Below, piece by piece: positions 6,206 through 32,949 of a stretch of 64,000 bases of DNA (position 1 is the stretch's first letter; the number at the start of each line of letters is the position of its first letter). The stretch comes from an uncultured Christensenella sp. (GTDB taxonomy: Bacteria > Bacillota > Clostridia > Christensenellales > Borkfalkiaceae). The notes beneath the pieces are model-generated. The model did not search any database and was not told where the DNA came from. It saw only the letters and a list, made by a program, of their open reading frames with translations. The position numbers were made by a program, and so were the translations under genes. The stretch lies in NCBI GenBank assembly GCA_910585785.1, contig CAJUEV010000008.1:682-64681 (forward strand), in the 5' to 3' direction.

Positions 6206-7111
6206 TCAAAGCTCTTCCCCGCCGTGCTGCTTGTAGCCTTCGCCGTAAATTTCCTGCGCGGAGGTGACTATGGTAAACGCCTGCGGGTCGTTATCCTTGA
6301 TAATATCCCTGAGTTTTGGGAAAAGATAGTTTTTTACCGCGCATAAAATAATAGTCCGCTCATTGCCCGTGTAAGCGCCTTTACCGTCCATAATAGTCGC
6401 GCTTATGTCAAGTTCTTGCAAAATACCGCGGCAAATACTTTCGCTTTTGTCCGCAGTCGTCACTATGTAAACAAACTTTGCCGTGTTTCCGCCGTACAGC
6501 ACAAAATCGAAAGTCAACACAAAGACAATAAGCGAAACTATGGTGTAAAACGTGCGGTCTATATCTTTAAAAATTATAGCGGATACGCCGACTATGACAA
6601 CGTCGATTATAAGCGATATAACGCCCGTCTTTAAATATCTGAATTTTTTGCGCAAAATTTTTATTATTATGTCCGTTCCGCCTGTGGTGCTGCCCATTCT
6701 AAAAATAAGTCCAAGCCCAGCGCCGTACAAAACTCCGCCTACCGTTGCCGGAATCCACAAGTTTTGTATTTCGGGCATAAGCGGAAGCAAAAGCCAATTC
6801 CATAACTCAATAAGCCCCGAAGACAACACGGTGGAAAACAGCGTGGAAATTATAAATTTTTTGCCGAAAAATATTATGCCAAGTATAAACAACGGCACGT
6901 TTATTATCATAATTATCCAGCCGGAGCCTATTTTGCCCTTAGCAAGATAACTAATCATTATCGCGATGCCGGTTACTCCGCCGGCGGCAAACTCGTTGGC
7001 GTCCAAAAACAGCGCCACTCCAAGCGAGTAAATTATGCAACCGAAAGTTATAATCGAATAAATTTTAAGATATTTCAAAAAAGCCGCTTTTTTATTCATA
7101 ACACCATACAT
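6206..7111 (-). CDS. YitT family membrane protein (DUF2179 C-terminal domain)
   Basis: GGVTGIAIM and GSTTGGTDIIIKIL motifs, plus a soluble C-terminal DUF2179-like domain (FTIVTSAQEIYGEGY). Start could be 7111 or 7099. Confidence 0.8.
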   Translation of the reverse strand: MYGVMNKKAAFLKYLKIYSIITFGCIIYSLGVALFLDANEFAAGGVTGIAIMISYLAKGKIGSGWIIMIINVPLFILGIIFFGKKFIISTLFSTVLSSGLIELWNWLLLPLMPEIQNLWIPATVGGVLYGAGLGLIFRMGSTTGGTDIIIKILRKKFRYLKTGVISLIIDVVIVGVSAIIFKDIDRTFYTIVSLIVFVLTFDFVLYGGNTAKFVYIVTTADKSESICRGILQELDISATIMDGKGAYTGNERTIILCAVKNYLFPKLRDIIKDNDPQAFTIVTSAQEIYGEGYKQHGGEEL

Positions 7112-7449
7112 TATATATAAAAATATTCATTTGTCAACTTGCGCCGCGTGCGTTTTGGCTCAGCAAAATTATTTTTTTGCGAAAGGTTAATCGGCGCAAA
7201 ATAAGACAAAAAGCGCAAGCGCGACAGAGTGAAAAAACTTTATTTTTGAACCAAGGCAAAAGCGCGCGGAAAACTTTTAACGTTAAAAATAAAAAAAGCG
7301 TTTAAAAACGCTTGTAATTTTTTCGGCTGTTATATATAATAATTAAGCAAAAAACGTGTTTGCAAAAAAGTTGAGCGCAGGTTTCCGCCTTTTTCCGCGG
7401 ACTATGGCTTGACTTTGCAGGCGACAAATTTTGCAAATCAACTAAAAAT

Positions 7450-7524
7450 TGGGGTGTCGCCAAGCGGTAAGGCAACGGACTCTGACTCCGTCATTCGTTG
7501 GTTCAAATCCAGCTACCCCAGCCA
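7450..7524 (+). tRNA. tRNA-Gln (anticodon CTG)
   Basis: Cloverleaf folded by hand. Acceptor TGGGGTG/TACCCCA (U1-A72, as in bacterial tRNA-Gln). Anticodon stem ACGGA/TCCGT, loop CTCTGAC. T-arm GTTGG-TTCAAAT-CCAGC. Encoded CCA. Confidence 0.9.
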
Positions 7525-7528
7525 CAGA

Positions 7529-7584
7529 CACTATATATTGTAGGTTCTAAAAATAAGAACACAATATATAGTGTTTTGTTTTTT
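7529..7584 (+). terminator. Intrinsic terminator after tRNA-Gln (13-bp perfect stem)
   Basis: CACTATATATTGT (7529-7541) pairs with ACAATATATAGTG (7561-7573), followed by TTTTGTTTTTT. Confidence 0.8.
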
Positions 7585-7608
7585 AGCAAAAATGGCTGGA
7601 AACCCCGA

Positions 7609-7629
7609 TTTGGGAGTAAATTTGGGAGT
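7609..7629 (+). repeat. TTTGGGAGT x2 (candidate integrase arm-type sites, left end)
   Basis: TTTGGGAGT at 7609-7617 and 7621-7629. The same motif recurs at the right end of the island. Confidence 0.5.
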
Positions 7630-7658
7630 TTGCAGGGACTAATTGGGGACTAACCCCC

Positions 7659-8864
7659 TCATTCTTCCCCAAAATCCCATTTTAAGTAATTTACTTTCTC
7701 CGCCTCGCGCAACTGAAATTCTTCCGAATAATGCGTGTAAACGGTAGTCGTAATCGTTCCGCTTAACGAATGCCCCGCCCAAATACTGACGACTTCGCTT
7801 AAAACGCCGCTTTCTTTGCTCCTGCTGATGAACGTATGTCTTAACTCGTGGGAGTGGTGATTCGGGAACAACCTTTTCATTGTAGTCTGCAACGTACTTA
7901 AGTTTACGCGCTTCGCCTTTTCAAAGTCGATATACGGCAATACTTGTTTCATCATCGGCGTAATAGGTATTTTGCGTTTTACAACGTTTTTACCCATACG
8001 CTCTTTGCTTGTTTCGCATTCGAGCCAAACACCGTCTATTACGTTTATGCTTGCAAGTTCGCTACGTCTAAGCCCTGCGTACAACAACACGAGAAAGGCG
8101 TGAGCGGTATCTTTTTTGAGATTTGCAAGGCAATGATTGACAAGCTTCTTTTCTTCCTCGTAGGTAAAAGCCGTTCCAACCTTGCTTTGATAGTTTGGTA
8201 CGACAACCTTTTTCATCGGTGTGGGGATGTTGTAGTCCTCCGCAATCATATCGAAAATACAACGTAGCAAGAGAAATAGTTTGTGCGACGTATGTAAAAC
8301 ACCTTTTTGAACGTAGGTTAAAAGGAAGTTCTGCAACATACATCTGTCTATCTCTATTGCCTTCATTTCTCCGAATGTGGGCAGAATGTCGCGATTTAAT
8401 AATCGTAAGTATTCATTGCAAGTCGATTGCTTTGTCGTAACCTTCTTAATGTTCAACCACTCGTCGGCGTATTCCGCAAAGGTCTTGTCCTTTTTATCGG
8501 ATTTTTCGTCTTTGTGATTAAGTTTATCGATAAATTTCTGTTTGAGTTTAGTTAAATCTTTGGACGAAACCTCTATGTCAATTCCCTGTCTATGGAATCT
8601 GGCTTCGTACACCCCGTCCTTTCTTAGACGGTAGTGAACTATCATATTGTTCGTCGCAAAAACATTTTTGTAGTTAATCGGCATCTGTGAAATCTCCTTT
8701 TTTGTAAATTTCAGCACACCCCGACGATTTTCAACTTTACTCTTTTCTGCTATGGGACCTAAACCCGCCAACACCTGCTTGTAAAGCTCATTTTGCTTTT
8801 TCAAAGCTTCAAGCAACTGCTGTACAGAATCGTCCGTTTGAATTGTGTTAGTTTGTTGTTTCAA
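7659..8864 (-). CDS. int: Tyrosine-type site-specific integrase
   Basis: 401 aa. Catalytic signature: AGLRRSEL (Arg), HELRHTF (H-x-x-R), LSGTITTTVYTHY (Tyr). Adjacent to the tRNA. TTG start. Confidence 0.9.
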   Translation of the reverse strand: MKQQTNTIQTDDSVQQLLEALKKQNELYKQVLAGLGPIAEKSKVENRRGVLKFTKKEISQMPINYKNVFATNNMIVHYRLRKDGVYEARFHRQGIDIEVSSKDLTKLKQKFIDKLNHKDEKSDKKDKTFAEYADEWLNIKKVTTKQSTCNEYLRLLNRDILPTFGEMKAIEIDRCMLQNFLLTYVQKGVLHTSHKLFLLLRCIFDMIAEDYNIPTPMKKVVVPNYQSKVGTAFTYEEEKKLVNHCLANLKKDTAHAFLVLLYAGLRRSELASINVIDGVWLECETSKERMGKNVVKRKIPITPMMKQVLPYIDFEKAKRVNLSTLQTTMKRLFPNHHSHELRHTFISRSKESGVLSEVVSIWAGHSLSGTITTTVYTHYSEEFQLREAEKVNYLKWDFGEE

Positions 8865-9550
8865 GTATCCTTATTCGGACTTATATTTCGGATTTACACC
8901 GCGTCCTTATAGTTAAGAATACTATGTCCTCTTTTCAAAACTTTTTTCCTCCTTAAAAATTATTTTTTGCAAGCGGAGGGAGCTGTCCGTCACTTTCCGT
9001 CTGCGGAATGTTAATACGATTATAGCGGTCCTTTTGAGTTTGTCAAGTGGTTACCACAAATTTTTTGCCGTAGGCAAATCAAAAGTGGGTTTCCCACTTT
9101 TTGCTCCTCGTAGGTGGAAATATACCACCTTCTTTATCCTGCTTACCTTTTTTAGTAAAATCGTCCCACTTTTTTGGTGTAAAAAGTAATTGTCTTTGCT
9201 ATGGTTTATCTCTTGAATGATACATATAACGATTGTCCCTTACAATTATCTCGACAACCATTATACGTATTAAATATGACAGATTTGGGCTTGTTTAAAA
9301 ATTTTCCTGAAACAATTTTATACTGTAAACATTTGCGTCAAACTGCCACAATCCACTTAATTTTAGGAGGCAGGATAAGGGAAGTGCCACAACGGGCAAC
9401 TCCGAAACGTTCGCTTTGTTCTCTCGAAACAAGCGGGAAACCCGCTTTTCTTGAATAAATGTACATAAAATTTTAGCTACTGTTCATCTGATTGACCTCC
9501 TTTGTGATATTTGAGGATTCTCTCTCAATTTAGCATTATACAAAAGTATC

Positions 9551-9569
9551 TATGACGTATATTGTCATA
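9551..9569. promoter_or_regulatory. Palindromic operator TATGAC-N7-GTCATA (copy 1), overlapping a minus-strand promoter
   Basis: TATGACGTATATTGTCATA. An extended -10 (TGTATAAT on the minus strand, 9535-9542) lies 9 nt away and faces the integrase. An extra half-site GTCATA is at 9594-9599. Confidence 0.55.
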
Positions 9570-9609
9570 TTTAAAAAGTTTTTTTAATATTTTGTCATAA
9601 ATATTTCCA

Positions 9610-9646
9610 CTAAATAAGTAAACCGCCGACGGAGTTCCGTCGGCGG
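9610..9646 (-). terminator. Intrinsic terminator downstream of the fic gene
   Basis: CCGCCGACGG-AGTT-CCGTCGGCGG (9623-9646). On the minus strand it is followed by TTTACTTATTT. Confidence 0.7.
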
Positions 9647-9668
9647 CTGGCTGGCTATTTTAACCTTT

Positions 9669-10601
9669 TTAATCTTCTGTTTCGTAATAGTAGGAATAGT
9701 CTATACCTTTCATAAACATTTCACGGTTGTCAATTTCGTCTGTAAGCGCACTGCTGATAAGTGCAAGAATATCGGTATAATCCGCAGGACTTTTCTGCAT
9801 TGCTGTAAGATACGCCCGCTTGTCTATCTTGCTCCAATCTACGCATTTGCGCAAATTCTTTTTCAAAATTAAGTCAAGCCAGATTCTCGTACTTCTGCCG
9901 TTACCCTCCATAAAGGGATGAGCGACGTTCATTTCTACATACTTCTTAACAATGTTTTCAATCGTATCTTCCGGCATCTTGTCAATGATTGCAAGGTTTT
10001 CTTTTAAATACATTGACGGGGCAAACGCAAAGCCGCCTTTTGCAATGTTCAAGCTGCGAATTTTCCCTGCAAAATCGTAAAGCCCGCCAAAAATATATCC
10101 GTGAATTTGTTGTAAACCTTTCGTCGTTCCCACTTCGATTTCGTCTATCAAACCGTTTTCAAGGAGTTCGTAAGCCTTTTGTTTACTCTTTTCGTCTAAC
10201 GTACTGCCGATTCCTTTTACCCATCTGGAAAAGTTCTCTTTGTTTTTTGCAGGTATGAGCGCAGTAATAAGAGTAACGCCGTCTTCGTCCACGACGTCGG
10301 TAAGGTATGACTTCCCGTCGTTTGCCTTCAATTTCAGTTGTTTGCAAATTGCAATCAACTGAGTATTTCGGCGTTTCATTGTTGCCCAATAAACACGCGG
10401 ATTACTGCTTTTTGTCAACGCCTCGGCAATATCCATAGCGCAAAACCACCATTTGGAACTCTCATCATCCCAAACAGCTCTAACTGGAATATTCTCAAAA
10501 AATCTAATTGACGTTTTTATCATGGCAATTTGATCCGTGCGCTTTTTCTTTATTCTATCATAAAAATTAAATTCTTGCAATCTGTTCAAACGCATTTCCA
10601 A
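9669..10601 (-). CDS. Fic/DOC family protein with an N-terminal Bro-N/DinD-like domain
   Basis: Fic motif [13 protein letters not shown]-terminus [31 protein letters not shown] resembles Bro-N DNA-binding domains. Start uncertain (10601 TTG, 10595 ATG or 10523 ATG). Confidence 0.8.
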
Positions 10602-10623
10602 ATAAGATGTTTTTCTGGTTTTA

Positions 10624-10652
10624 TTGACAATAAACTCTAATTATGCTATAAT
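10624..10652 (+). promoter_or_regulatory. Consensus sigma-A-type promoter for the XRE/nuclease/R-M operon
   Basis: TTGACA (10624-10629), 17-bp spacer, TATAAT (10647-10652). ATG of the XRE gene is at 10677. Confidence 0.75.
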
Positions 10653-10676
10653 ATGTTATAATTTGATAGGTATATT

Positions 10677-10880
10677 ATGGAATTCTCAAAATTCTGCCTT
10701 GAAACAAGGCTAAAACTCAATTTAAGTCAGGAAATGTTGGCGCGAAAGCTCGACGTTTCTTTTGCTACAATCAACCGCTGGGAGAACGGCAAAGCCCTTC
10801 CCCAGAAACTGACCCTATACCGTTTTGAAAAGTTCTGCGAAGAAAACGGTATAGAATTTGTTGCAAATTTGACTCTTTGA
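10677..10880 (+). CDS. XRE-family HTH regulator (possible controller protein of the operon)
   Basis: LNLSQEMLARKLDVSFATINRWENGKALP is a typical HTH_3 motif. First gene after the consensus promoter. Confidence 0.8.
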   Translation: MEFSKFCLETRLKLNLSQEMLARKLDVSFATINRWENGKALPQKLTLYRFEKFCEENGIEFVANLTL

Positions 10881-10905
10881 AAATTTAACGTGCGAGGAAA
10901 TTATT

Positions 10906-11736
10906 ATGGCTACTAGTAAGAAACTTGAAATTATATATTACAACGGACAACCTGACGGTGTGCGTTCTGTCCGTCGTCATCTGTCTACAATTACTACTTA
11001 TGTTATACCGCGTCCTTTACTTTCGGAGGCAGAGAAAATTTCGGGTATTACAAGACCCGGCATTTATTATCTGATTAACGATAACGATGAAAATAAGATT
11101 GCACAAATCTATATCGGGCAGACGCGCAACGGTGTTACACGCCTTGATGACCATAACCGTTCCAAAGATTTCTGGAATAAAGCGATTATGTTTCTTGCTG
11201 ACAACAAGACTTTTTCGCTTGATATGATAAGCGGACTTGAAGAATACGCCATTATCAAAGCTCACGAAGCAAAGCGTTATAAGGTTGAAAATTCAGTTAA
11301 GCCAAAATATGAGATTGACGAATACGACCTTCCCTCTATTGAGGAAGTCTACGACGAAATTCAGTTCGTTATGGCAACGCTCGGCTACAAGATGAACGAT
11401 GCAAAACAGACCAGAAACGAATCTGAAATTTTTCACACAACACGCAACGGAATTACCGCTTACGGTATTTATAGCGGCGATAAGTTTCAGGTATTGGAAG
11501 ACTCAGAAATCAATATTACAAAACCTGTCAGTCTTCCTAAATACAATAGGCAGCGTGAAGAGCTGTTGCAAAAAGGAGATATAAGCGTTAATGGCAAGAA
11601 ATACGTTCTGAATGTAATTTTGGAATTCAATACCCCGAGCGGTGCAAGTGATTTTGTTCTTGGCGGTTCCACTAACGGCTGGATTGAATGGAAAAACAAA
11701 AATGGAAAGACATTAGACGAAATTTATAGAAAATAA
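10906..11736 (+). CDS. GIY-YIG nuclease-domain protein with C-terminal DUF4357-like domain
   Basis: GIYYLINDNDENKIAQIYIGQT...RLDDH (GIY...YIG...R). The C-terminus SGASDFVLGGSTNGWIEWKNKNGKTLDEIY matches the DUF4357 pattern often found beside R-M methyltransferases. Confidence 0.75.
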   Translation: MATSKKLEIIYYNGQPDGVRSVRRHLSTITTYVIPRPLLSEAEKISGITRPGIYYLINDNDENKIAQIYIGQTRNGVTRLDDHNRSKDFWNKAIMFLADNKTFSLDMISGLEEYAIIKAHEAKRYKVENSVKPKYEIDEYDLPSIEEVYDEIQFVMATLGYKMNDAKQTRNESEIFHTTRNGITAYGIYSGDKFQVLEDSEINITKPVSLPKYNRQREELLQKGDISVNGKKYVLNVILEFNTPSGASDFVLGGSTNGWIEWKNKNGKTLDEIYRK

Positions 11737-11744
11737 TTTTTATA

Positions 11745-11763
11745 TATGACTATATATGTCATA
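11745..11763. promoter_or_regulatory. Palindromic operator TATGAC-N7-GTCATA (copy 2), just upstream of mod
   Basis: (A)TATGACTATATATGTCATA(T). Located 37 nt before the mod ATG, next to a TATAAT hexamer at 11775-11780. Confidence 0.55.
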
Positions 11764-11799
11764 TTATTAGGTTTATAATAGATTAACAAGGATTTAAAA

Positions 11800-13404
11800 A
11801 TGAGTACAAATATCTCCAAAGAAAAAAGAGAAAATCTTATAGGTAAAATAAAAGCTATACGCGAGTATATTGCTGCCGCACCGCAAGATGAAAATACGGG
11901 AAATCTTTTAACGTATCTTTCTGAAATTGAAAAAGATATAAAAGGAAAGAAATACGGCTTAGTGTTTGAAGAACACCGTGAAAGCATAGATGATATTCTT
12001 GCTACTCACACTCCCGTTCTTTCAGAAGATACAGATTTATTAATTGATAATGGTGGTCAAATGAACTTCCTTATTGAAGGAGATAATTTGGCTTCTTTAC
12101 AGCTTCTCGAAAAAACCCATAAAGGTAAAATAGATTTAATTTACATAGATCCCCCTTACAATACAGGGAACAAAGATTTTATCTATAACGATAGCTTTGT
12201 TAATGGTGATGATGAATTCCGGCATAGCAAATGGGCATCTTTCATATACAAACGCTTATCAATCGCAAAACGACTTCTCTCACATAAAGGAATGATTTTT
12301 ATAAGCATTGACGACAACGAAGTCTATTCATTAAAATTTATTTGTGATAGTATTTTCGGAGAAAACAATTATATTTCATCTATTGTTTGGAAAAGAAAGA
12401 GAGGTCGAGATAATTCAGCAAAATGGGTTAGCAAAGCACATGAATATCTTCTTGTTTACGCAAATAGAAAAGAAAACTGTACATTGAACTATTTAGAATT
12501 AGATGAGGAAACCAAGAAAGCCTATAAAAACCCAGATAACGATCCTCGCGGTATTTACCGTATGTTGGGTTGTTGGGCCAGAGGAACTCAAGGTGGAGTT
12601 AAATATGATTTCACTACTAAAGATGGAAAATATTTTTCTGAACGGTTATGGCTTTTCAGTAAAGAAAATTTGAGAAAATTAGATGAAAATAATAAATTAA
12701 TTATACGCGGAGAAAACATTTATCGAAAAATGTTCATCTATGAAAATAAAGGCAAAATAGCTGATTCTGTTTGGGATGATGTATCTAACGCTGCAAATGC
12801 GTCTGATGAGATTAAGAGTATTTTTAATAATATAGCTTTTGATACAGCTAAGCCTATCCCCTACATAAAACGAATAATTCAGTTAGCATCATCAAAGAAC
12901 TCAATTATTCTTGATTTCTTTGCTGGCAGTGGGACAACAGGGCACGCCATTATGAAGCTTAATGCTGAAGATGAAGGAAATAGAAAATTTATCTTGTGTA
13001 CTAACAACGAAAACAATATTTGTCGCAATATAACTTATGAACGCATTAAACGTGTTATTGATAAGGAAATTTATAGTGCAAGTTTAAAGTATTACAAAGT
13101 TGACTATGTTCCCATCTCCGATAAACTCTACTATGAGTACGCAGACGAACTATTAAAGCATATTAGAGAACTTGTTGAACTTGAAAACGGAGTAAACTTT
13201 AAAGGCAACAATGAAATAGCTATATTACTTACAGAAGATGAAGTTAACGCCTTTGTATCCGACGAAGATAAACTTAAAGTTTGCAAAAAAGTATATATTG
13301 GACACGATGTGCTTTTGGACGGTAATCAAGAATATATACTTGAGCAAAACAAAATTGAATTGAACATTATTCCTGAATATTATTACAAGGAATTGGAGGC
13401 TTAA
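11800..13404 (+). CDS. mod: Type III R-M DNA methyltransferase (Mod, N6-adenine/N4-cytosine beta class)
   Basis: Motif IV IYIDPPYNTG precedes motif I DFFAGSGTTGHA (beta-class order), with a central variable region. RBS AAGGA. Confidence 0.9.
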   Translation: MSTNISKEKRENLIGKIKAIREYIAAAPQDENTGNLLTYLSEIEKDIKGKKYGLVFEEHRESIDDILATHTPVLSEDTDLLIDNGGQMNFLIEGDNLASLQLLEKTHKGKIDLIYIDPPYNTGNKDFIYNDSFVNGDDEFRHSKWASFIYKRLSIAKRLLSHKGMIFISIDDNEVYSLKFICDSIFGENNYISSIVWKRKRGRDNSAKWVSKAHEYLLVYANRKENCTLNYLELDEETKKAYKNPDNDPRGIYRMLGCWARGTQGGVKYDFTTKDGKYFSERLWLFSKENLRKLDENNKLIIRGENIYRKMFIYENKGKIADSVWDDVSNAANASDEIKSIFNNIAFDTAKPIPYIKRIIQLASSKNSIILDFFAGSGTTGHAIMKLNAEDEGNRKFILCTNNENNICRNITYERIKRVIDKEIYSASLKYYKVDYVPISDKLYYEYADELLKHIRELVELENGVNFKGNNEIAILLTEDEVNAFVSDEDKLKVCKKVYIGHDVLLDGNQEYILEQNKIELNIIPEYYYKELEA

Positions 13405-13406
13405 AT

Positions 13407-15599
13407 ATGGCAATACAATTGAAAAACTTCCAACTTAAAGCAGTTGATTCGCTAATGGATGCAATGCACAACGATAAAAGAGAAATCATATTAAAAAGCT
13501 GCACCGGTAGCGGTAAAACAATAATTTTAACACACTTTATCAATACATATATGCGGAGTTTTGGAAATACCGTATTTGTTTGGCTTACACCAGGTAAAGG
13601 CAATTTGGAAGAACAAAGCAAAGAGAAAATGGATCAATACATATACGGTGCCTCTACTAAATTGTTATGCGATGTTATGACAAGCGGATTTAATGCAGGC
13701 GATTCGTGTTTTATTAACTGGGAAAAACTAACAAAAAAAGGAAATACCGCCCTGCGCGATAGCGAAAGAACCAATTTCCTTGAACATATAGAAAAAGCTT
13801 TAGATTCTGGCATTACTTTCAAAGTAATCGTCGACGAATCCCACCAAAACGATACAATTAAAGCGGATGAAATTATCGAATATTTCAAGACAGATAAGAT
13901 CGTCCGTTGTTCTGCCACACCTAAACCTTACAGAAATGCGTTTACAGTAGAAGTTCCTGAAGAAGACGTAATCGCTGAAGGATTAATTAAAAAACTATTG
14001 ATTATCAATGAAAACTTTGAACAGAATATAACGGTTGATGACCAAATTACTTACCTAATTGATAAAGCACTTGATAAGCAACGAGAACTACATTCTGCCT
14101 TTTTAAGATTAAAAGCGAATATCAACCCTCTTATTGTTGTTCAACTTCCTAATAAGTCGGATGCATTGTTAGAAAGTGTTGAAAGATATTTCAACAGCAA
14201 AGGAATTTCATACGAAAATAATCAACTGGCAGTTTGGCTTTCTGATAAAAAACAAAACCTTGAAAATATTGTTCAACCTAATGCTACCCCCATTGCCGTT
14301 ATAATAAAACAAGCTGTTGCTACTGGTTGGGATTGCCCTCGCGCTCATATACTTGTCAAGCTACGCGATAATATGAGTGAAACGTTTGAAATTCAAACTA
14401 TTGGGCGAATTCGTAGAATGCCAGAAGCTAAGCACTATGAAAACGATTTGCTTGACAGTTGCTATCTCTATACACTTGACGGAGCTTTTACTGAGAGTGT
14501 TAAACAATCATTAGGAAAAGGCGCGCTTGATGCAAGAAAATTGTTATTAAAACCAGAACATCGAGCTTTTACAATTATTACTGAATACAAGACAGATGTT
14601 CCCTTCCCAAGAGATGCGGCTTTAACTTTACGAGTATTCAGCGAACACTTCAAAACAAAATATAGTCTAACAGGAAAACTTTTAGAGAACAAAACTAAGC
14701 TACAGGCATGCGGCTTTAACTTTAGTCAAGATATCGTTGACTATACAAAATCAGGATCAGTATCAAAATTAGAAAAAGAGCAGATTGACGACTTAAATGC
14801 TATTTCCATACATGAGGAACTTAACACAACTAAACACGGCAGAGATTATCATCACTGTGTGTCGGAAATCGGCTTAAAGGTTACTTTAGATTATTCTAGA
14901 ATAAACACTGTTGTAAGAAAACTTTTCCTTAAAGATTTGCGCAGTGATTATAAAGTGCTTGGATTAGAGATTCGAGAGCTGTATTCTTTCGTTATCAACA
15001 ATAAAGAACGTTTAATTGCCGAGATACGAGAAGCGATGTCGTCCACTATGCTTCAACAGTCGCTCAAGGTAAATAATATTACTGAGAAACCTCTTTCGTT
15101 CCCGTTAGAATATTTATTTACTTATGACGGAACGGCTAAAGTACAAACCGAGCTTACAAAAAACGTTTATAAAGGTTATTTGGTTTCTGCCGAAAAACGC
15201 TCGGCTTCGGAAAAATTATTTGAAAAGTTTTGCGAAAGTAGCAAGAACGTTGACTGGTTTTATAAAAACGGTGATAAGGGTGCAGAATATTTCTCGATCG
15301 TTTATGAAGATAATTTAGGAAAGCAAAAATCCTTTTATCCCGATTACATAATATCCATCAACGGAAAAATTTGGATTATCGAAACGAAAGGTGGCTTTAC
15401 CAAATCTGGCGAAAGTGAAGATATTGATAAATACACCGGTAAGAAATTTGAAGTGTTAAAACACTATTTGAACAAGTATGATTTAAAAGGCGGTATCGTA
15501 AGACAAGATAAACAAAGCTTTGAATTATGCATTTGTACTGACACATACTCCGACGACATCAAAAGTGATGCATGGAAGGTTTTAAGCGAGATTTTATAA
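13407..15599 (+). CDS. res: Type III restriction enzyme Res subunit (SF2 helicase + PD-(D/E)xK nuclease)
   Basis: Walker A CTGSGKT, DEAH-like VDESHQ, QTIGRIRR (motif VI), and C-terminal YPDYIISINGKIWIIETKG nuclease motif. Starts 2 nt after mod. Confidence 0.9.
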   Translation: MAIQLKNFQLKAVDSLMDAMHNDKREIILKSCTGSGKTIILTHFINTYMRSFGNTVFVWLTPGKGNLEEQSKEKMDQYIYGASTKLLCDVMTSGFNAGDSCFINWEKLTKKGNTALRDSERTNFLEHIEKALDSGITFKVIVDESHQNDTIKADEIIEYFKTDKIVRCSATPKPYRNAFTVEVPEEDVIAEGLIKKLLIINENFEQNITVDDQITYLIDKALDKQRELHSAFLRLKANINPLIVVQLPNKSDALLESVERYFNSKGISYENNQLAVWLSDKKQNLENIVQPNATPIAVIIKQAVATGWDCPRAHILVKLRDNMSETFEIQTIGRIRRMPEAKHYENDLLDSCYLYTLDGAFTESVKQSLGKGALDARKLLLKPEHRAFTIITEYKTDVPFPRDAALTLRVFSEHFKTKYSLTGKLLENKTKLQACGFNFSQDIVDYTKSGSVSKLEKEQIDDLNAISIHEELNTTKHGRDYHHCVSEIGLKVTLDYSRINTVVRKLFLKDLRSDYKVLGLEIRELYSFVINNKERLIAEIREAMSSTMLQQSLKVNNITEKPLSFPLEYLFTYDGTAKVQTELTKNVYKGYLVSAEKRSASEKLFEKFCESSKNVDWFYKNGDKGAEYFSIVYEDNLGKQKSFYPDYIISINGKIWIIETKGGFTKSGESEDIDKYTGKKFEVLKHYLNKYDLKGGIVRQDKQSFELCICTDTYSDDIKSDAWKVLSEIL

Positions 15600-15611
15600 G
15601 AGGTATAACAA

Positions 15612-16529
15612 ATGAAAGCTCCAAATAAGAATGTTCCTATTTACGTTTATTATGTAACAATTGAAAAACAGAAAAGTTCTACGGCAGCTTCTTCCAAATA
15701 TGATATGGGAGAAATAGTCAATGCCTTTACAAAGGTGTTACGATTTACTATTTCGCAAGAATTAACCGAACGTAAAATTGATAATACTGCAGCGGATAAA
15801 ATAATTTGGCTTGACGATTTTAAGGATTTAGAGAATGGAAATTATAATCTTATTTTCAAATCTGCTAAATATAATCATGTCCGAAATGAAATTGATACGG
15901 TAAATATGACTCCTTTAGGTCAGCGCAAACGTCCACAGGATGGCGATGAAGAAAAAACGCATCTGTGTATTCGCTTAGCGGATGGACAAATGAGATTTCT
16001 TGCTATTCATGAAAGCAATCATTATGGCATTTCTATTAAAGGAATCGTTGATTACTTAAATTCTCAATTTGAAAAGCTGAATGAACAAGACGAGCAAGAA
16101 GCATTTTATCGAGCTTCTTATGAAATTGTACCAAGTGAAGAGTTTTTGACACGGTTGAAAAAAGCTAAAACGATGCACGCAATGCGACTTGAGGTAGATA
16201 GAGAAGTATTTAAAGATGACTTTTGGTCATTATCTGGAAGAAACGATATTAGAGAAACTGTTGAAGTCGTTTTAAAACGCCCTAAGGGAACTAAAATTTT
16301 TCCGGAAAATTTAATTAAAGCGTATTATGATAATATGCAAAGCGACAGTCGAATAAAAAGTATAACCGTAAGTGGTCGTGGCTCAGCCAATGATACTATG
16401 GAAATTTCAACTGATTTGATTAAAATGAAGCATTGTATTTCAGTTGAGTGCGAGGATGTAACATTCGAAGTCCGTAGCTCTGACTTCTTTTTAAAAGCAC
16501 AAGGTTTTATAGATAATATGTCGAGGTAA
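15612..16529 (+). CDS. Hypothetical 305-aa soluble protein (no family recognised)
   Basis: RBS AGAGG. Starts 12 nt after the res stop. Charged and two-lobed, with acidic linker EKLNEQDEQEA. AT-rich composition like the rest of the island. Confidence 0.75.
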   Translation: MKAPNKNVPIYVYYVTIEKQKSSTAASSKYDMGEIVNAFTKVLRFTISQELTERKIDNTAADKIIWLDDFKDLENGNYNLIFKSAKYNHVRNEIDTVNMTPLGQRKRPQDGDEEKTHLCIRLADGQMRFLAIHESNHYGISIKGIVDYLNSQFEKLNEQDEQEAFYRASYEIVPSEEFLTRLKKAKTMHAMRLEVDREVFKDDFWSLSGRNDIRETVEVVLKRPKGTKIFPENLIKAYYDNMQSDSRIKSITVSGRGSANDTMEISTDLIKMKHCISVECEDVTFEVRSSDFFLKAQGFIDNMSR

Positions 16530-16533
16530 AGTT

Positions 16534-17064
16534 ATGAAAAGACTATTTTTACCGATTGTCGATTATTTTCGCACAAGACGGAAAGTCATATTGAAGTTTA
16601 TAGCTCCGATAATTTGTTCAGGAATTTTCATAGGATTATCTTTTTTGATTCCCCTACAAGAAGATGCTAACATTCCACAGATTTTTTCAGATTTCATTAA
16701 TGCTTTAATAAGTATCGTTGCAATTTTTATTTCATTTTCAATCGCCATTATTTCAATTTTGGTGTCTGCCGATAACCCTAATATACAGCGATTGAGAGAA
16801 ATGCAGTCAAAAGATGGTTCAATGAAAGAATTAAACGGAAAGCCGCTGACTCTATTTCAAGTCTTACTTTCCAATCTTGCTTACAATGTGTTTATTGAAG
16901 TTCTATTCTTAGTAGTACTTATTGTGTATTTACTTATCAAAGCTGTAATTCCCGAAGTAGCTATCCGATATTTAATTGCATTTGGGGTTTTTGGCATTGT
17001 TCATATTTTACTAATTCTTTTGGAAACAGTTGTGCAAATGTATCACACATTTTGGCAAAATTAA
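16534..17064 (+). CDS. Hypothetical 176-aa membrane protein (four hydrophobic helices, 2+2)
   Basis: Starts 4 nt after the upstream stop; GAGG lies upstream. Hydrophobic segments at about residues 19-41, 50-79, 105-135 and 143-167. Confidence 0.7.
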   Translation: MKRLFLPIVDYFRTRRKVILKFIAPIICSGIFIGLSFLIPLQEDANIPQIFSDFINALISIVAIFISFSIAIISILVSADNPNIQRLREMQSKDGSMKELNGKPLTLFQVLLSNLAYNVFIEVLFLVVLIVYLLIKAVIPEVAIRYLIAFGVFGIVHILLILLETVVQMYHTFWQN

Positions 17065-17246
17065 AGAATCATTTAACAACCGATAATAAGATTATATTTG
17101 GACGTTTAATCTATAATAAAAAAGTGTCTGAATACAAAGAGCACAAAAAATTTTTTAATGAACTCGCTCAACAAGTTATTGATTTTTGCATAGCTAACGT
17201 AAAAGACTATCATATTAAAACAGGAACAATCAAAGAAGAAAATTAG
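17052..17246 (+). CDS. Questionable 64-aa ORF (TTG start, overlaps upstream gene by 13 nt)
   Basis: Open frame only. No ATG and no SD. Lys-rich and soluble. Confidence 0.3.
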   Translation: MAKLKNHLTTDNKIIFGRLIYNKKVSEYKEHKKFFNELAQQVIDFCIANVKDYHIKTGTIKEEN

Positions 17247-17287
17247 AATCTTAAGTTAAATATATACCAAAGAGGCAATTTATAAAA

Positions 17288-17950
17288 ATGTATAATTCAA
17301 TAAGTAGTGAATTTAAAGATAAGTCAAAATATCTTACAAATCAGACACTTTATATTGGTCTTCCGATTTTTTATTTTGGTGTAGGTGTTTTACTGGTTTA
17401 TTTATTAAAATGGGATATATTCAATCCTTTCTATTTATTTTTTGTGTTTTTCGGTGTAATAACATTTCTTATTCTAATTTCTTATTATGGATTAATACTA
17501 AAAACCGTAAAAAGTGAAAAAGAGTTTTCTTGGAAAAAAAGTTGGAGAATTCTTAAAATGATTAACTTTTACACTGAAACAGTACATAATAAAGATATTG
17601 ACTTATTAAAGAATATATTAAAAGACTATGGAGTTAATACAAGACCAAAGGTTTTAGAAGTATTAAGACATTACCAATGTTTATTGCCACGCAAAATTAT
17701 TAGTGGTGGGCATTTGCTTTCTATACTTGCGCTAACGATTGCTACTCTTGCACTATTATTTCAGGATAGTATATATAACTCTGAAAGCAAATTATTTATG
17801 GTTTTTTTTGTTATTCTAATGGTAATAGCCATATATATGTTAATAGATATTTTAAACAAAAACTTTTTTCGCGTATTAGGTGTAGATGCCTTAAACGAGC
17901 GCATTGAAATGGCGGTTTCAGAAATTTGGATCCATTCATTGATTAAATAG
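17288..17950 (+). CDS. Hypothetical 220-aa membrane protein (four hydrophobic helices around a ~65-aa polar insert)
   Basis: RBS AAAGAGG. Hydrophobic segments at about residues 20-40, 45-71, 139-157 and 168-189. Last gene before the operon terminator. Confidence 0.7.
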   Translation: MYNSISSEFKDKSKYLTNQTLYIGLPIFYFGVGVLLVYLLKWDIFNPFYLFFVFFGVITFLILISYYGLILKTVKSEKEFSWKKSWRILKMINFYTETVHNKDIDLLKNILKDYGVNTRPKVLEVLRHYQCLLPRKIISGGHLLSILALTIATLALLFQDSIYNSESKLFMVFFVILMVIAIYMLIDILNKNFFRVLGVDALNERIEMAVSEIWIHSLIK

Positions 17951-17967
17951 GATAATAATTAGGAAAC

Positions 17968-17996
17968 AAAATCGGGGCAAATGCCCCGATTTTTTG
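17968..17996 (+). terminator. Intrinsic terminator closing the island operon
   Basis: AAAATCGGGGC-AAAT-GCCCCGATTTTTT. Confidence 0.85.
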
Positions 17997-18065
17997 TATG
18001 TTTTTTGCCTCTTAAATGGTCATTTTTTAGCAGAAAAGTTGAACGAAAAGGACAATTAGTCCGTC

Positions 18066-18120
18066 ACTCCCAAAAAATAGGGAGGTTTTTGGGAGTAAAG
18101 TTTTGAAAATCGTTTGGGAG
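18066..18120. repeat. TTTGGGAG motif cluster at the right island end
   Basis: ACTCCCAAA (inverted, 18066-18074), TTTGGGAGT (18088-18096) and TTTGGGAG (18113-18120). The first two form a hairpin. Confidence 0.5.
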
Positions 18121-18186
18121 CGCAATATATTGTGTTTTTTATTCTTTGCAACTACTATATATTGTTGTTGCTATTTTAATTAAGTC

Positions 18187-18215
18187 CTCTGACTCCGTTG
18201 TTTATTGTTTCAACC
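18187..18215 (+). other. Degenerate tRNA-Gln 3'-half remnant (attR-like)
   Basis: CTCTGACTCCGT is identical to tRNA positions 7480-7491. The following TGTTTATTGTTTCAACC aligns with CATTCGTTGGTTCAAATCC of the intact tRNA at roughly 70 percent identity (by eye). Confidence 0.55.
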
Positions 18216-18277
18216 TTATTCGCCGAGGTTATAAAACAAACTAAAAGACCGGCTTTAATGTTAGATTTCTGATTAAT

Positions 18278-20620
18278 TTATTCCCCTACAAGCAAGTTTT
18301 TGGGGGATATTTTTTTGATTTTAAGCGACATTAAGCACGCTATGCCAAACGACAGAATAATAAACCCGATTCCCGCAAACGTAACAAACACGATAGGAAT
18401 ATTAAACGTACACTTTACAATGCCGAGCGAACTGAAAAACAGCGACAAAAGCGGATTGATAATAAAACAGCCTATAATTATGCCGACAACCGTCGAAATT
18501 ATAATAGCAGGCATAAACGAAAGCGCAGTCTGCAAAATGAGTTGCTTCGTTGTAAATCCAAGCGATTTGAGTATTCCGTAGTCCCGCTTTTTGTTGTTCA
18601 GCATCGTGCGGACAAGCAGATACAATACAAATGCAATTATTACCGCCGAAAGAATAAGGATTGCGATTACTATTATCGTCATAAGCGAAACATAAACGCC
18701 GGCAGCAGCGTCAATCGTTGCATTGACATTTATAACGGTATTAACATTACCCTCAAAATTCCCTTTCATTTCTTCGTTGAAAGCGTCTATATCAGTACCT
18801 TCCGCAAGCTTGATATAATAAGTAACGCTCTGCAACGTTCCCAACCGCTCGAAACCCTTTCTTGTCAGAAGGCAATCCCTGCCGAGATTGTTTGAAATTT
18901 GCGTAAATCCGCAAATAAGATATTTCTGAGTGTTACCGTTTAAAGCTATTTCTATTTCGTTGCCGACTTCAAAGCCTTTCTCTTTTGCATATTTTGCGCC
19001 GATAGCAATTTCATTATCGTATTTAGGGAATCTGCCCTTAAAAATCGTGTTTTGATTATTAAGCACGGAAAAATCATCACACATATCCGCCAAAAGTTCC
19101 GCACCGCCGACGTGCGATATGGTTACGGAGTTATAAAGATACGCCTTTTCGACACGGCTGTCGGAATTTAACTTATCAATAAAATCGTCTTCGACTTCAA
19201 TTTGCACGTTAATAGCGCTGTCAGTTGTTTCACCCATAATAATATCTATGAAAGGCGTCATATCAACAATAATGTTTTCAAACATAAGCCCCGAAAACAC
19301 GACCACGAGCGAGAGAACGAACATTGTTATACAAATCGTTATATTATTCTTTACACTCGATAAAGTAGTTTTGAGCGCAAGCGCGACATTAAGCGGGGCT
19401 TTCATCTTTTCAAGCGGAACGTGATTACGCTTAAAGTTATGAGTCTGAACGCCCGAACGCAGCGCAACGATAGGCTCTATTTTTTTGATTCTACGAGCCG
19501 AAAGCCAAGTGGAAAGCGCGACTGCGCCGCCCAAAATCAAAAGCGAGATAAGCGCGGGTAACGGTAAAAAATGAATTGCATACGGTATTCCCGTCTGCGC
19601 TATCATCATCGTATTTACCGCGGGAAAAATTGCATAAGAAGCCGCTATACCAACGATTGCCGCAATGACAGTCAGCCCCAAAAACTGCAATAAAAGAGAG
19701 TAAACGAGTTGCCTCGAAGTATAACCCGTGGCTTTAAAAGCACCGAGATTTTTAATGTTGACTTGAATATAATTGATAATATTCGATATAATTACCACAA
19801 GCGCAATCAAGAGTACGATAAACGCCATTGCGCTTATAATGCTCGAACAAATCATTTGCGAAATGTATCTTGCTTGCAAAACCACGTCATAACAGCAACC
19901 TATCATACAAGTATTAGGAAAATGCCCAGAAACGGTTGATTTTAATATAGCTTCATAATTGAGGTTAGTTGATTTGTCGTTCAAACGTACCGAACACAGC
20001 GTTGTCTTGGATGCGTAATTCAATTCTTCAAGCTCGGCATACTTATCTGCCGTAAGTATGATTTGAGTTAAAGCGCAGTTATGAGAGCCTAACATTGTGT
20101 TGTTGAAGAAGCCGCATATTGTGTACACTACGGGGTGGCTTCCGATAGTTAATTCAATCGTTTTGCCTACGGAATTATCATTTGACTTATAAAGCATAGG
20201 CAAATATACACCGCTCGTAAACTCGCTATCCTCAACGATTTCGGATTTGCCGATTGTGCGCGAAATAGCCGTTTGCTTATCCATAAAAACAAACTCGCTG
20301 TTCATCATTCCGCCGTTATAAGGGAACGTGCCGACCATACGCATACATTTATCTAAACGGTATTCTTTAACGTCGGCGTCTTTTGCAAGTGTTTCGGTTA
20401 AAAACCCGTAAACCGTTCCGTCGGTATCGTCTACCGCAAGCGTAACGTGTTCGGCATTGAGTTTATCGTGGTATCTCAAAAAGTTGGCTTTATAGTCCAT
20501 AGACAACATAAGCCATAGGTTTAAGAGCATAGCCGCAAGCAAAATCAGCACGACGATAGCAGCCGCTTGTCCTTTTGCTTTCCGCATATTAGAGCGGGCT
20601 ATAAGAAATAGCTTTCTCAT
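18278..20620 (-). CDS. ABC transporter permease, FtsX/MacB-BceB type (780 aa, two FtsX modules)
   Basis: Clusters of N- and C-terminal TM helices with large extracytoplasmic segments. Begins 1 nt after the ATPase gene. Confidence 0.8.
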   Translation of the reverse strand: MRKLFLIARSNMRKAKGQAAAIVVLILLAAMLLNLWLMLSMDYKANFLRYHDKLNAEHVTLAVDDTDGTVYGFLTETLAKDADVKEYRLDKCMRMVGTFPYNGGMMNSEFVFMDKQTAISRTIGKSEIVEDSEFTSGVYLPMLYKSNDNSVGKTIELTIGSHPVVYTICGFFNNTMLGSHNCALTQIILTADKYAELEELNYASKTTLCSVRLNDKSTNLNYEAILKSTVSGHFPNTCMIGCCYDVVLQARYISQMICSSIISAMAFIVLLIALVVIISNIINYIQVNIKNLGAFKATGYTSRQLVYSLLLQFLGLTVIAAIVGIAASYAIFPAVNTMMIAQTGIPYAIHFLPLPALISLLILGGAVALSTWLSARRIKKIEPIVALRSGVQTHNFKRNHVPLEKMKAPLNVALALKTTLSSVKNNITICITMFVLSLVVVFSGLMFENIIVDMTPFIDIIMGETTDSAINVQIEVEDDFIDKLNSDSRVEKAYLYNSVTISHVGGAELLADMCDDFSVLNNQNTIFKGRFPKYDNEIAIGAKYAKEKGFEVGNEIEIALNGNTQKYLICGFTQISNNLGRDCLLTRKGFERLGTLQSVTYYIKLAEGTDIDAFNEEMKGNFEGNVNTVINVNATIDAAAGVYVSLMTIIVIAILILSAVIIAFVLYLLVRTMLNNKKRDYGILKSLGFTTKQLILQTALSFMPAIIISTVVGIIIGCFIINPLLSLFFSSLGIVKCTFNIPIVFVTFAGIGFIILSFGIACLMSLKIKKISPKNLLVGE

Positions 20621-28527: not shown

Positions 28528-28604
<77 letters not shown>

Positions 28605-28652
28605 CCGTTATTTTAATCGTTAGCAGCAATACGGCGGCTTAATTTAATATTC

Positions 28653-28728
28653 GGGGATATAGCACAGTTGGTAGCGCGATACGTTCGCAACGTATAGGTC
28701 AGGGGTTCGAATCCCCTTATCTCCACCA
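28653..28728 (+). tRNA. tRNA-Ala (anticodon CGC)
   Basis: G3:U70 identity pair (GGGGATA/TATCTCC). Anticodon stem ATACG/CGTAT, loop TTCGCAA. T-arm AGGGG-TTCGAAT-CCCCT, encoded CCA. Confidence 0.85.
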
Positions 28729-28787: not shown

Positions 28788-29273
28788 ATGACTAAGTTAT
28801 TTAAAAATCCAAAAGAGAATGAAATTTTTCCTGTCCTTATAAAATGGAAAAATATTCTATTCTTTACAGGTTATTATTATGATGAAAATGATAATGACTG
28901 TTTGTTTCACACTTTGAATAATATAGAATGTTTCAAAACAATGGACGACCTAAAATCTTTTTGTGAACAAAACAATTTAATTTTAAATAATGAACTTGCT
29001 GAATTTGATTTTGACAAAACAATCACTAATCCGATATATTATAACGATGTCTTAAACAAATGGAATATTTTAAATACAATTTCCTTAAATTTACACATTA
29101 ATTTTGAAGGCAACAAATTGAAATATAACGATGTTTATAATTATCTTTTTGCGTACTGTTTTGCAAAAGAACCTTTACCTGCACTTTATGAAATACCGTA
29201 TGAATATTTCAATATAATTAAATACATTTTTGAAAAGCAATCAGAAATTTTAAAAAGCATTAAGTATTATTAA
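28788..29273 (+). CDS. Hypothetical 161-aa protein
   Basis: Open frame in the AT-rich island, rich in N/Y/K. No motif recognised. Confidence 0.55.
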   Translation: MTKLFKNPKENEIFPVLIKWKNILFFTGYYYDENDNDCLFHTLNNIECFKTMDDLKSFCEQNNLILNNELAEFDFDKTITNPIYYNDVLNKWNILNTISLNLHINFEGNKLKYNDVYNYLFAYCFAKEPLPALYEIPYEYFNIIKYIFEKQSEILKSIKYY

Positions 29274-29481
29274 AATTTCGGTTCTACGTAAGTCAATGTT
29301 TGTCCGTCAATAGAAAAAGAATTTGAACACCGTTTCAAACTCTTTTTTCACGTGCTTGTTTTATCAAGCACCCGCCACAGTGCCAATTTTCGTTTATATA
29401 AAATAATCACTTTATAGTGTCGTGAGGAATTGAAATTTTTGTTATTTTATGATATAATTTATCGAAAGTGAGGATACTAAT

Positions 29482-30171
29482 ATGAATACTTATTATGAAA
29501 AAATCAAGTTTGTAAAAACAAAAGTAGTGTCATATCTTAACGAGATTTACAAAGTTTATGGAAATGAACTTCTTTTGAGATTAGAAGAATACAACCTTTT
29601 ACAGAATAAAAACAACTGTATAGAATCTTCTACTGCAACCGGCTTTATTATTGAAGAGTTCGTTGTATCCAAACTGGAAACCTATTCGCTATCACATAAT
29701 AATATTGATGACATATGTATAAAAAGAATTGAATGCCACGGAACGCAAACTACTAGTTATGATTGTTGCATAAACTATCAAGATGTATTTTTTATGATTA
29801 ATGTTAAGGTTGATAAAGGAAACAATAATGCTATTTCCGCTATCAATATTTTGCATAATGATTATGTTTTAACTAGACCTAACCAAGAAAAATCTTTTCT
29901 CGTCCTAAAAACCAAATATACATTTGGAGCATCTAAAAGATCAAATGAACGTAAAATTCTTGTTAAAGGAATTAGCATATATGCTTTGGAGGAAATTGAT
30001 TTTTCAATAGGTCATAAACAAGACCATAGAAATTGGTCTGAACAGTTTAATCCCGCATCAGGGCGTTTACAAGTTACAAAACGATTTATGGAAAATAACA
30101 AACTTAATGAAGATGAAATATCGTATAATAAAACAAAACAGTTTATAGAAAAAATGTATAATGCACGATAA
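29482..30171 (+). CDS. Putative Type II restriction endonuclease (229 aa)
   Basis: RBS GAGGA. Convergent partner of the C5 methyltransferase. Possible PD-(D/E)xK-like core (IIEEF ... SYDCC ... INVKVDK). The family is not identified from memory. Confidence 0.55.
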   Translation: MNTYYEKIKFVKTKVVSYLNEIYKVYGNELLLRLEEYNLLQNKNNCIESSTATGFIIEEFVVSKLETYSLSHNNIDDICIKRIECHGTQTTSYDCCINYQDVFFMINVKVDKGNNNAISAINILHNDYVLTRPNQEKSFLVLKTKYTFGASKRSNERKILVKGISIYALEEIDFSIGHKQDHRNWSEQFNPASGRLQVTKRFMENNKLNEDEISYNKTKQFIEKMYNAR

Positions 30172-30175
30172 GACA

Positions 30176-30210
30176 GACGAAGGGTTAATTAAACAGCCCT
30201 TCGTCTTTTT
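30176..30210. terminator. Bidirectional terminator between the convergent R and M genes
   Basis: GACGAAGGG (30176-30184) pairs with CCCTTCGTC (30197-30205), followed by TTTTT. Confidence 0.7.
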
Positions 30211-30211
30211 A

Positions 30212-31477: not shown

Positions 31478-31501
31478 AATGAGTGGTGCCTTTTTATGTC
31501 C

Positions 31502-31530
31502 ATTATGCATGAAAAATGTCCACTTGTCAA
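31502..31530 (-). promoter_or_regulatory. Promoter of the methyltransferase gene
   Basis: Minus strand reads TTGACA (31525-31530), 17-bp spacer, CATAAT (31502-31507). Confidence 0.65.
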
Positions 31531-31599
31531 GTTAATTGAAATATTTATTTTTAATGAATAAAATATTCGTTTTAGGTTACTTGCACTCCACCACACTAT

Positions 31600-31636
31600 G
31601 ACCGATAAGAACACCCATCTTGTCGGTCTCTTTTTT
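31600..31636 (+). terminator. Plus-strand intrinsic terminator (probably the displaced native terminator of the tRNA-Val/Ala operon)
   Basis: GACCGATAAGA (31600-31610) pairs with TCTTGTCGGTC (31618-31628), 11 bp with one G-U. Followed by TCTTTTTTGCGCTGTTTTTT. Confidence 0.65.
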
Positions 31637-32906: not shown

Positions 32907-32949
32907 AACAGATTTATCGAAATTAAAAAATAAGGGAGAAAAAAAATTT

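Follow-up and report, generated by a model that had tools for sequence, protein, structure and literature searches.

The tRNA-Gln(CTG) gene of an uncultured gut bacterium of the Christensenellales is followed by a block of AT-rich DNA, and the far end of this block carries a worn likeness of the same tRNA. What kind of element occupies this locus, how did it enter, and what does the worn sequence record? We addressed these questions in a window of 64 kb, the whole stretch of DNA analysed here, which belongs to a metagenome-assembled genome (MAG) with an assembly of 1.6 Mb in total. All coordinates are positions within the window. Handles with G stand for compared genomes, those with L for compared loci or contigs and those with C for contig numbers, with G000 being the genome of the window itself. 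The element, at 7480-18198 (10,707 bp), is an island of the tyrosine-integrase type located at the anticodon loop of tRNA-Gln(CTG). With a probability of roughly 0.85, we conclude that it is an integrative genomic island that was inserted in this tRNA gene by its own integrase. It is an ordinary and well-known kind of element which carries anti-phage genes, and its family is common in one uncultured Christensenellales genus, known mostly from mouse-gut MAGs.

The Core Repeat and the Limits of the Island

The tRNA-Gln(CTG) gene is intact and lies at 7450-7524 on the plus strand (ARAGORN; Rfam tRNA, 57.7 bits); it was the sole match in an Rfam scan of 7000-19000. Up to 7479, its 5' part is host DNA, and from 7480 onward it consists of the crossover region and a 3' half supplied by the island. 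Read against the cloverleaf, the 12-mer CTCTGACTCCGT comprises the 7-nt anticodon loop CTCTGAC and the 3' strand of the anticodon stem, TCCGT. It forms the core of the left attachment site (attL) at 7480-7491 on the plus strand, and recurs on the same strand with 12 of 12 identical positions as the core of the right site (attR) at 18187-18198. An exact repeat at these places had been claimed in a preliminary description of this DNA, and it holds well. These are the only two exact copies in the window, and also the only two in the whole assembly. With one mismatch allowed, no further copy appears in the window (0.05 matches expected), and two copies were reached in 0 of 100 shuffles. The sharp change to AT-rich DNA between the two points, which had likewise been described, is seen in a G+C content of 0.351 for the island against 0.436 and 0.441 for the flanks.

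The same description had taken the two ends for attL and attR of an element with a tyrosine integrase that brings along the tRNA 3' half it needs, and had proposed a comparison with relatives lacking the island. This reading is supported by an empty site in G005, where tRNA-Gln stands about 133 nt from a gene for an FtsX permease, in convergent orientation and with a different terminator of its own, and by boundaries that are reproduced in relatives. Across 61 genomes of the genus, many contigs carry two to four same-strand copies of the core spaced 7-40 kb apart, a pattern whose reversed control gave 0. The repeats there comprise 45 nt, from the first loop base (equivalent to 7480) to the tRNA 3' end. 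A sibling island of 22.6 kb in G059 shows a perfect 45-nt repeat. Compared with the window, it is 78% identical in the integrase region, 90.5% in the block of the Fic/Bro-N gene and the regulator, and 86.8% over 245 nt of the right (P) arm, where the homology stops exactly at 18198. At the other end, in tandem arrays and siblings, the arm of a neighbouring element abuts exactly the base equivalent to 7480, and the two proposed boundaries are in this way recovered from relatives. Because these foreign arms abut exactly at CTCTGAC, the attachment site can be assigned on comparative grounds to the anticodon-centred class, with an identity block running from the loop to the tRNA 3' end. The loop CTCTGAC is the probable 7-nt overlap region of the crossover.

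In the mechanism we propose, the integrase would recombine the attachment site of the element (attP) with tRNA-Gln(CTG), with a crossover within the 7-nt anticodon loop. The island would bring a tRNA copy that begins with the loop and runs to the 3' end, plus a terminator hairpin, so that the tRNA gene would stay functional at attL, and the native 3' half would be displaced to the far end, at attR. Since the assembly has only one tRNA-Gln(CTG) gene, plus one tRNA-Gln(TTG), excision from the chromosome of the window would now rebuild a broken tRNA-Gln(CTG) gene.

Parts of the same island are found in other hosts. Metagenome contig L127 carries window 16798-18211, and the Logan contigs L132 and L133 carry 12898-18198. 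Past the island, these contigs continue into an intact displaced tRNA half (44/45), a G005-type terminator, a spacer and the permease gene. Because their island parts are 97.4-98.4% identical to the window but their permease flank is 75-77% identical, the same island has entered the same site in a different species recently, which is the most direct evidence for the island among these comparisons. Copies at 92-98% identity also occur at L131, L135 and L137-L139, upstream of an element with a 407-amino-acid (aa) integrase, and one of these contexts holds a plasmid-partition-like gene. As these copies adjoin another element, the window's island also exists inside arrays, or possibly on other replicons. 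Tandem arrays at tRNA-Gln were observed in G048:C7:58989-86190 (three islands, four att copies) and in G069:C7:33358-68045 (two islands, three att copies), and decay has gone furthest in the outermost fragment of each array.

The tRNA-Gln 3' half occurs as two circulating alleles (L086, L091, L095, L099, L102, L107 and G059). Allele 1 has the T arm GTTGG/CCAGC and the acceptor strand TACCCCA, and allele 2 has GGGTG/CACTT and CGCCCCA. Some rebuilt tRNA genes are chimeric; in L099 a type-1 5' half is joined to a 3' half of type 2, and in L095 to a third variant. Part of the host tRNA sequence is set by the island. In G112 (L078), one displaced fragment has the loop CTCTAAC in place of CTCTGAC, with the rest of its 3' half perfect.

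The Integrase and the Arms of the Attachment Site

The integrase gene (7659-8864, minus strand) is intact and encodes a tyrosine integrase of 401 aa, matching the Pfam families Phage_int_SAM_3, Phage_integrase and Phage_int_M (PF00589, PF14659, PF22022) and phrog_1 (1.5e-36). Its end lies 135 nt from tRNA-Gln, in agreement with the earlier remark that the integrase adjoins the intact tRNA. The catalytic motifs LRRSE, HELRH, GHS and VYTHY are invariant across 15 relatives. A candidate sigma-70-type consensus promoter directed towards the gene, TTGACA-16-TATAAT at 9019-9046 on the minus strand, was identified by pattern match alone.

Relatives of the integrase were found at 23 loci, mostly with 80-94% aa identity, and come from MAGs named uncultured Christensenella, Christensenellaceae or Clostridia, many of them in a mouse gut catalogue. 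An intact tRNA-Gln(CTG) stands at the same distance and in the same orientation at 15 of the 23, and the core with the tRNA-Gln 3' half (about 135 nt away) is found beside 21, of which 19 have the ACTATATATTGT hairpin as well. The loci without a whole tRNA are in tandem arrays, because there the arm of another element precedes the core. One relative, at L096 (JAIDFD010000105.1), has an in-frame stop codon and is probably a pseudogene.

The architecture of attP was obtained by conceptually joining both ends of the island. The P' arm, at the integrase end, is ordered as the tRNA 3' half, the hairpin ACTATATATTGT...ACAATATATAGT, two copies of TTTGGGAGT (7609, 7621), two copies of GGGACTAA (7635, 7646) and the end of the integrase gene, with the repeats occupying 7609-7653 on the plus strand. 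The P arm, at the cargo end (17955-18186, plus strand), begins with a terminator (17968-17993), followed by CTCCCAAA (18067-18074, inverted), TTTGGGAGT (18088), TTTGGGAG (18113), the palindrome CAATATATTG (18123-18135), ACTATATATTGTTGTTG (18154-18170; ACTATATATTGT(T/G)GTTG), 16 nt and the core. The P arm has the same architecture in G048, G011 and G017, and its motifs are kept in these three genomes and in G059.

The window has eight copies of the motif TTTGGGAG, where 1.7 would be expected. Five of them are no more than 150 nt from an end of the island, at 7609, 7621, 18088 and 18113 on the plus strand and inverted at 18067-18074. These are the five places at which the preliminary description had noted it. 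The integrase relatives that were examined conserve these repeats as a tandem pair, and siblings conserve them in their other arm as well. As TTGGGAG with a spacing of 11-12 nt, it is kept in 19 of 22 integrase-relative loci, even beside differing neighbour sequence. The TTTGGGAG(T) motifs, which both arms carry, are probably the arm-type sites of the integrase.

The sequence ACTATATATTGT is located at 7530, inverted at 7561, and again at 18154. The left hairpin (7527-7586, plus strand), supplied by the island, is built of ACTATATATTGT ... ACAATATATAGT around an inner stem and is followed by a T-run; it folds at -23.2 kcal/mol (z = -6.5). An AT-palindromic hairpin had been described at both ends, which is correct for the left end and fails for the right, where the arms form two small stems (-12.8 kcal/mol, z = -2.75) and no comparable hairpin. 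The left hairpin can be read as the intrinsic terminator of the rebuilt tRNA, supplied by the island. Across 20 distinct elements the outer 12-bp stem keeps one sequence and the loop differs without restriction, which indicates that the stem is under a sequence constraint besides its role as a terminator, most likely as a protein site. The invariant AT-palindromes near the core are likely accessory-protein sites.

Several points must be set against the interpretation given so far. The N-terminal region of the integrase (about 125-136 residues) has no Pfam match and belongs to no known arm-binding family, and the AlphaFold model of the protein, built on a 15-sequence alignment, reached a predicted local distance difference test score (pLDDT) of 48, too poor for use. 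No excisionase candidate was recognised. Every contig with the exact FtsX protein of the window's species carries the island, and a look-up of the contigs encoding this protein found no same-species empty site. No excised circle or attP junction was seen, as the attP-type junction pattern gave 0 matches in viral and Joint Genome Institute (JGI) metagenome contig collections; a looser pattern of P arm and core gave six loci there, and the island family is therefore present in those collections but rare.

Some of the arm sequences are found in other settings. The 17-mer AC(T/A)ATATATTGTGGTTG (window 18154-18170; loci L056-L085 and L109-L121) occurs in 70 of 156 genus genomes, with up to nine copies per genome. 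The copies often lie within 200 nt of contig ends and are not confined to att arms. The 17-mer also precedes stable-RNA-type promoters by 50-70 nt, and it is part of a hairpin TTGTGGTTG...CAACCACAA with a promoter-like site behind it. The 17-mer may be a genus-wide protein-binding site or a repeat element. The palindrome family ACWATATATWGT has five more intergenic copies in G000, at C2:141053 and C2:141196 (143 nt apart), C4:82605, C7:71075 and C18:19952, with 0 for the reversed-pattern control. At L080 (G114:C7) and L081 (G020:C18), another tRNA, with ...GGTTCAAATCCGGGTGGCGCCTCCA at its 3' end, precedes ACAATATATTGTGGTTG, a hairpin and TTTGGGGAGTAATTTGGGGAGT in this order, so that other tRNA genes serve as sites for related elements of this arm design. 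The arm motif is joined to the T arm of yet another tRNA at L059 and L082.

The Displaced Fragment and a Proposed Turnover of Islands

Directly after the right core, from 18199, the sequence reads TGTTTATTG. Ten of the 15 nt after the core match the tRNA in register, and a repeat finder extends the core match to 27 nt at 81% identity. Among the 10,550 positions of the island only 5 score as high as 10/15, and local shuffling reaches this score 8 times in 5,000 (p about 5e-4 to 2e-3). The degenerate tRNA look-alike of the preliminary description is real over about 15-19 nt, and beyond about 19 nt the similarity is not above background. The stretch at 18199-18217 (plus strand) represents a decayed remnant of the displaced native 3' half, with its variable loop and T arm, and an acceptor strand can no longer be made out. 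Of the five changes, four replace G/C by A/T, as expected for decay in AT-rich DNA. This remnant is a relic of the native tRNA half under no selection, and probably dates from an earlier occupation of the site.

The fragment had been called unusually diverged. Far ends were sampled in 156 genus genomes through the P-arm 17-mer, independently of the core, and the downstream sequence was then read. Of the 14 far ends obtained, five keep a tRNA half that is intact or nearly so and the other nine show clear decay, so that the window's fragment is not unusual. In the nine decayed far ends, the loop is free of mismatches (0/63), the 5-nt stem strand has 5/45 and the adjoining 12 nt have 36/108; the Fisher test of the core against the next 12 nt gives p = 5e-8, in an ungapped comparison of sites that are related and not fully independent, which tempers its weight.

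A pair of loci is particularly informative. G017 and L136 have one decayed fragment in common (core CTCTGACTAAGT), and with it one flank, which agrees at 97.6% over 800 nt. Left of the core, where the identity drops, they are about 90% identical nearby and unrelated beyond about 290 nt, and their cargo is of type I restriction-modification in G017 and of the window's type III in L136. Because the two share fragment and flank but carry different islands, the pair suggests that islands change beside a fixed relic, with the break in similarity at the core. G012, the closest host found (one matched FtsX piece, 95% identical), carries a distinct island version at the same site, with an integrase gene at 89% DNA identity and a Mob_Pre-fragment/DUF6291 module that is absent from the window. 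In this genome (G012:C26:1-3055, L045), a deletion has joined the island's DUF6291 region to a point midway in the FtsX permease gene (window equivalent 19874), with the loss of the cargo, attR and about 530 permease codons.

On account of the contrast between loop and flank, the G017/L136 pair and the distinct island of G012, we favour, by a modest margin, turnover of islands at this site over long residence of a single one. In turnover, a newcomer island would integrate into the rebuilt tRNA, and the older island would leave by recombination between the middle and right att sites, which share the loop. The outcome would be a young island beside an old worn fragment, with the loop renewed or selected each time. 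For the window's own genome, turnover is argued by analogy with the G017/L136 pair. The preliminary description had suggested an old insertion. What is old is the first occupation of the site, and not necessarily the window's island, whose old age is not required because a 97-98% identical island has an intact fragment in another host.

A broader reading, which we hold tentatively and at somewhat less than even odds, regards tRNA-Gln as a long-lived docking site. In it, the native half decays, and the 7-nt loop is kept by successive defence islands via integrase-mediated exchange, the host then depending on the resident island for its tRNA-Gln(CTG). If this is true, the dependence of the host would favour replacement of the island over its simple loss.

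Long residence is the alternative that survives best, although we consider it the less likely of the two. It holds that the island was inserted long ago, that the fragment decayed in place and that copies were recently exported, with the loop kept intact because an island whose attR has failed leaves no descendants. The arms and the core, which are all that excision needs, are indeed intact in the window, the copies in other hosts are nearly identical, and no other state of the locus was found in the window's species. However, the identity to the L132 copy is 91-94% in the left part and 98.4% in the right part, and this difference marks the island as a recent mosaic. G012 carries its other version at the same site with an integrase gene more diverged than the FtsX flank, and the change of islands beside a fixed decayed fragment in G017 and L136 is also difficult to reconcile with long residence.

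A second alternative, improbable in our judgement, is that the flank after the right core was never a tRNA. The core would have been joined to an unrelated flank by the island or by a rearrangement of two islands, and the likeness to the T arm would be due to chance. It agrees with the shortness of the likeness (about 15-19 nt) and with the other 60 nt up to the FtsX stop codon, as window 18199-18277 has no similarity to the tRNA-FtsX spacer of G005 and L127. Gene order near tRNA-Gln also varies, the tRNA of G017 having the opposite orientation relative to FtsX and the left flank differing in G005 and G018. Nevertheless, the in-register match is rare by either count, the bias of the changes is that of decay, nine other far ends form a graded decay series, and tRNA-Gln and FtsX are neighbours both at the empty site and at the occupied L127 and L132 sites. 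The non-tRNA original flank that had been offered as one explanation of the divergence is accordingly unlikely, given a tRNA-like first 15 nt and this graded series.

Cargo and Class of the Element

The backbone that the window shares with sibling islands includes a Fic/Bro-N protein (9669-10601, minus strand; PADLOC candidate PDC-S04), whose gene is 90-91% identical in DNA to those of the G059 and G017 islands, and an XRE-type helix-turn-helix regulator (10677-10880, plus strand; Pfam). The genes that follow are all on the plus strand, beginning with a GIY-YIG/DUF4357 protein (10906-11736; PADLOC candidate PDC-S14). A type III methyltransferase (11800-13404; PADLOC MTase_III, 1e-118; Pfam N6_N4_Mtase) is adjacent to a Res helicase-nuclease (13407-15599; PADLOC REase_III, 3e-14; Pfam ResIII), and this Mod-Res pair is predicted to constitute a type III restriction-modification system (11800-15599). 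Three function-unassigned cargo genes of 305, 176 and 220 aa occupy 15612-17950 and travel with the island in other hosts. The 305- and 176-aa proteins match only PHROG families of unknown function, and the PHROG scan gave no match for the 220-aa protein. The cargo slot varies; that of G059 contains Wadjet, methyltransferases and Mrr, and that of G017 a type I restriction-modification system.

The island is neither a prophage nor a demonstrable mobilisable element. That it might be a prophage, a phage satellite or a mobilisable plasmid-like element is very improbable, even though its integrase falls in phrog_1, several cargo proteins match PHROG families, and the siblings G059, G017 and G012 have a Mob_Pre-like fragment and a DUF6291 gene beside the integrase gene. 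Pfam and PHROG scans of the window found no capsid, terminase, packaging, replication or complete relaxase genes, and not even a remnant of the Mob_Pre/DUF6291 module was detected in window 8800-9700. In G059 itself, Mob_Pre is matched over the last 70 profile positions only, as a C-terminal fragment, and the viral contig collection gave no match. The weakest alternative, a chance 12-nt repeat in a low-GC block with other boundaries, could point to the brevity of 12 nt and to other AT-rich short repeats in the window, and is negligible in view of the sibling islands and the empty site, which effectively refute it, the same junction recurring in many genomes with homology breaking exactly at the core.

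Host Genes and Neighbouring Sequence

The left flank of the island is host DNA with a gene for a YitT-family membrane protein. The right flank, also host, begins with the FtsX/MacB-type (BceB-like) permease gene (18278-20620, minus strand; Pfam), which is in synteny with G005, G017 and G020. This gene is a member of a Bce-like module, and is the neighbour of tRNA-Gln at the empty site. G020 was considered as a carrier of a 20-kb island between tRNA-Gln and FtsX, and was rejected, because its FtsX gene is directly next to an ordinary ABC ATPase gene and the locus showed no att site. An in-place inversion of tRNA and island in G017 was likewise rejected; the flank beyond attR maps to another contig of the window's genome, which indicates a general rearrangement. 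A second AT-rich block lies in the window at 29000-33000 (G+C 0.27-0.39), just downstream of tRNA-Val and tRNA-Ala (28528-28728), and no tRNA-fragment repeat was found for it.

Significance and Comparison with Known Systems

These results settle how an 11-kb block of an uncultured gut Christensenellales genome should be annotated. They also define a family of defence islands that are small, swap their cargo and have an attachment site mapped with precision, which is an aid for reading the MAGs of this clade and possibly a site-specific integration tool for it. The perfect 7-nt loop against a decayed flank, together with two islands beside one relic, provides a small natural data set on the turnover of islands at a tRNA hot spot. 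There is also a practical lesson, in that island finders based on tRNA fragments will miss islands with a decayed far end, and the conserved arm motif found them.

Defence islands on integrative elements are known for exchangeable cargo. The present family resembles them in its conserved backbone (integrase, Fic/Bro-N, helix-turn-helix regulator and att arms) with a variable slot. Unlike defence islands in general, its members are small (10-24 kb), and the window copy is without transfer or replication genes.

In attP sites of the lambda type, the core is flanked by arm-type integrase sites and by sites for accessory proteins. The island is similar in having short TTTGGGAGT repeats on both arms, direct and inverted, 80-140 nt from the core, palindromic sites nearer the core, and an integrase with an extra N-terminal region of about 125 aa. 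It differs in that this region matches no known arm-binding family, and in that one candidate accessory palindrome pair doubles as the tRNA terminator hairpin. The link of integrase subfamilies to the site used within the tRNA is reportedly due to Williams (2002, NAR 30:866). For the uncultured Christensenellales host clade and this integrase lineage, no description was found in the literature.

The closest known systems are tRNA islands of the Islander type. In the Islander collection, 2,083 of 3,919 islands have an anticodon-centred site, and 125 tandem arrays are recorded (Hudson et al. 2015, PMC4383910). The window's island shares with this type a tyrosine integrase beside a regenerated tRNA, the supply of the tRNA 3' part by the island, a displaced 3' fragment at the far end, the crossover in the anticodon loop and the occurrence of tandem arrays. 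It differs in its displaced fragment, whose decay has gone so far that it would probably escape a search for tRNA fragments. Mildly new are the family in Christensenellales, the invariant palindromic terminator stem that is repeated in the other arm, and the relic far end with its evidence of turnover; the current understanding of tRNA-targeted integration is left unchanged by these findings.

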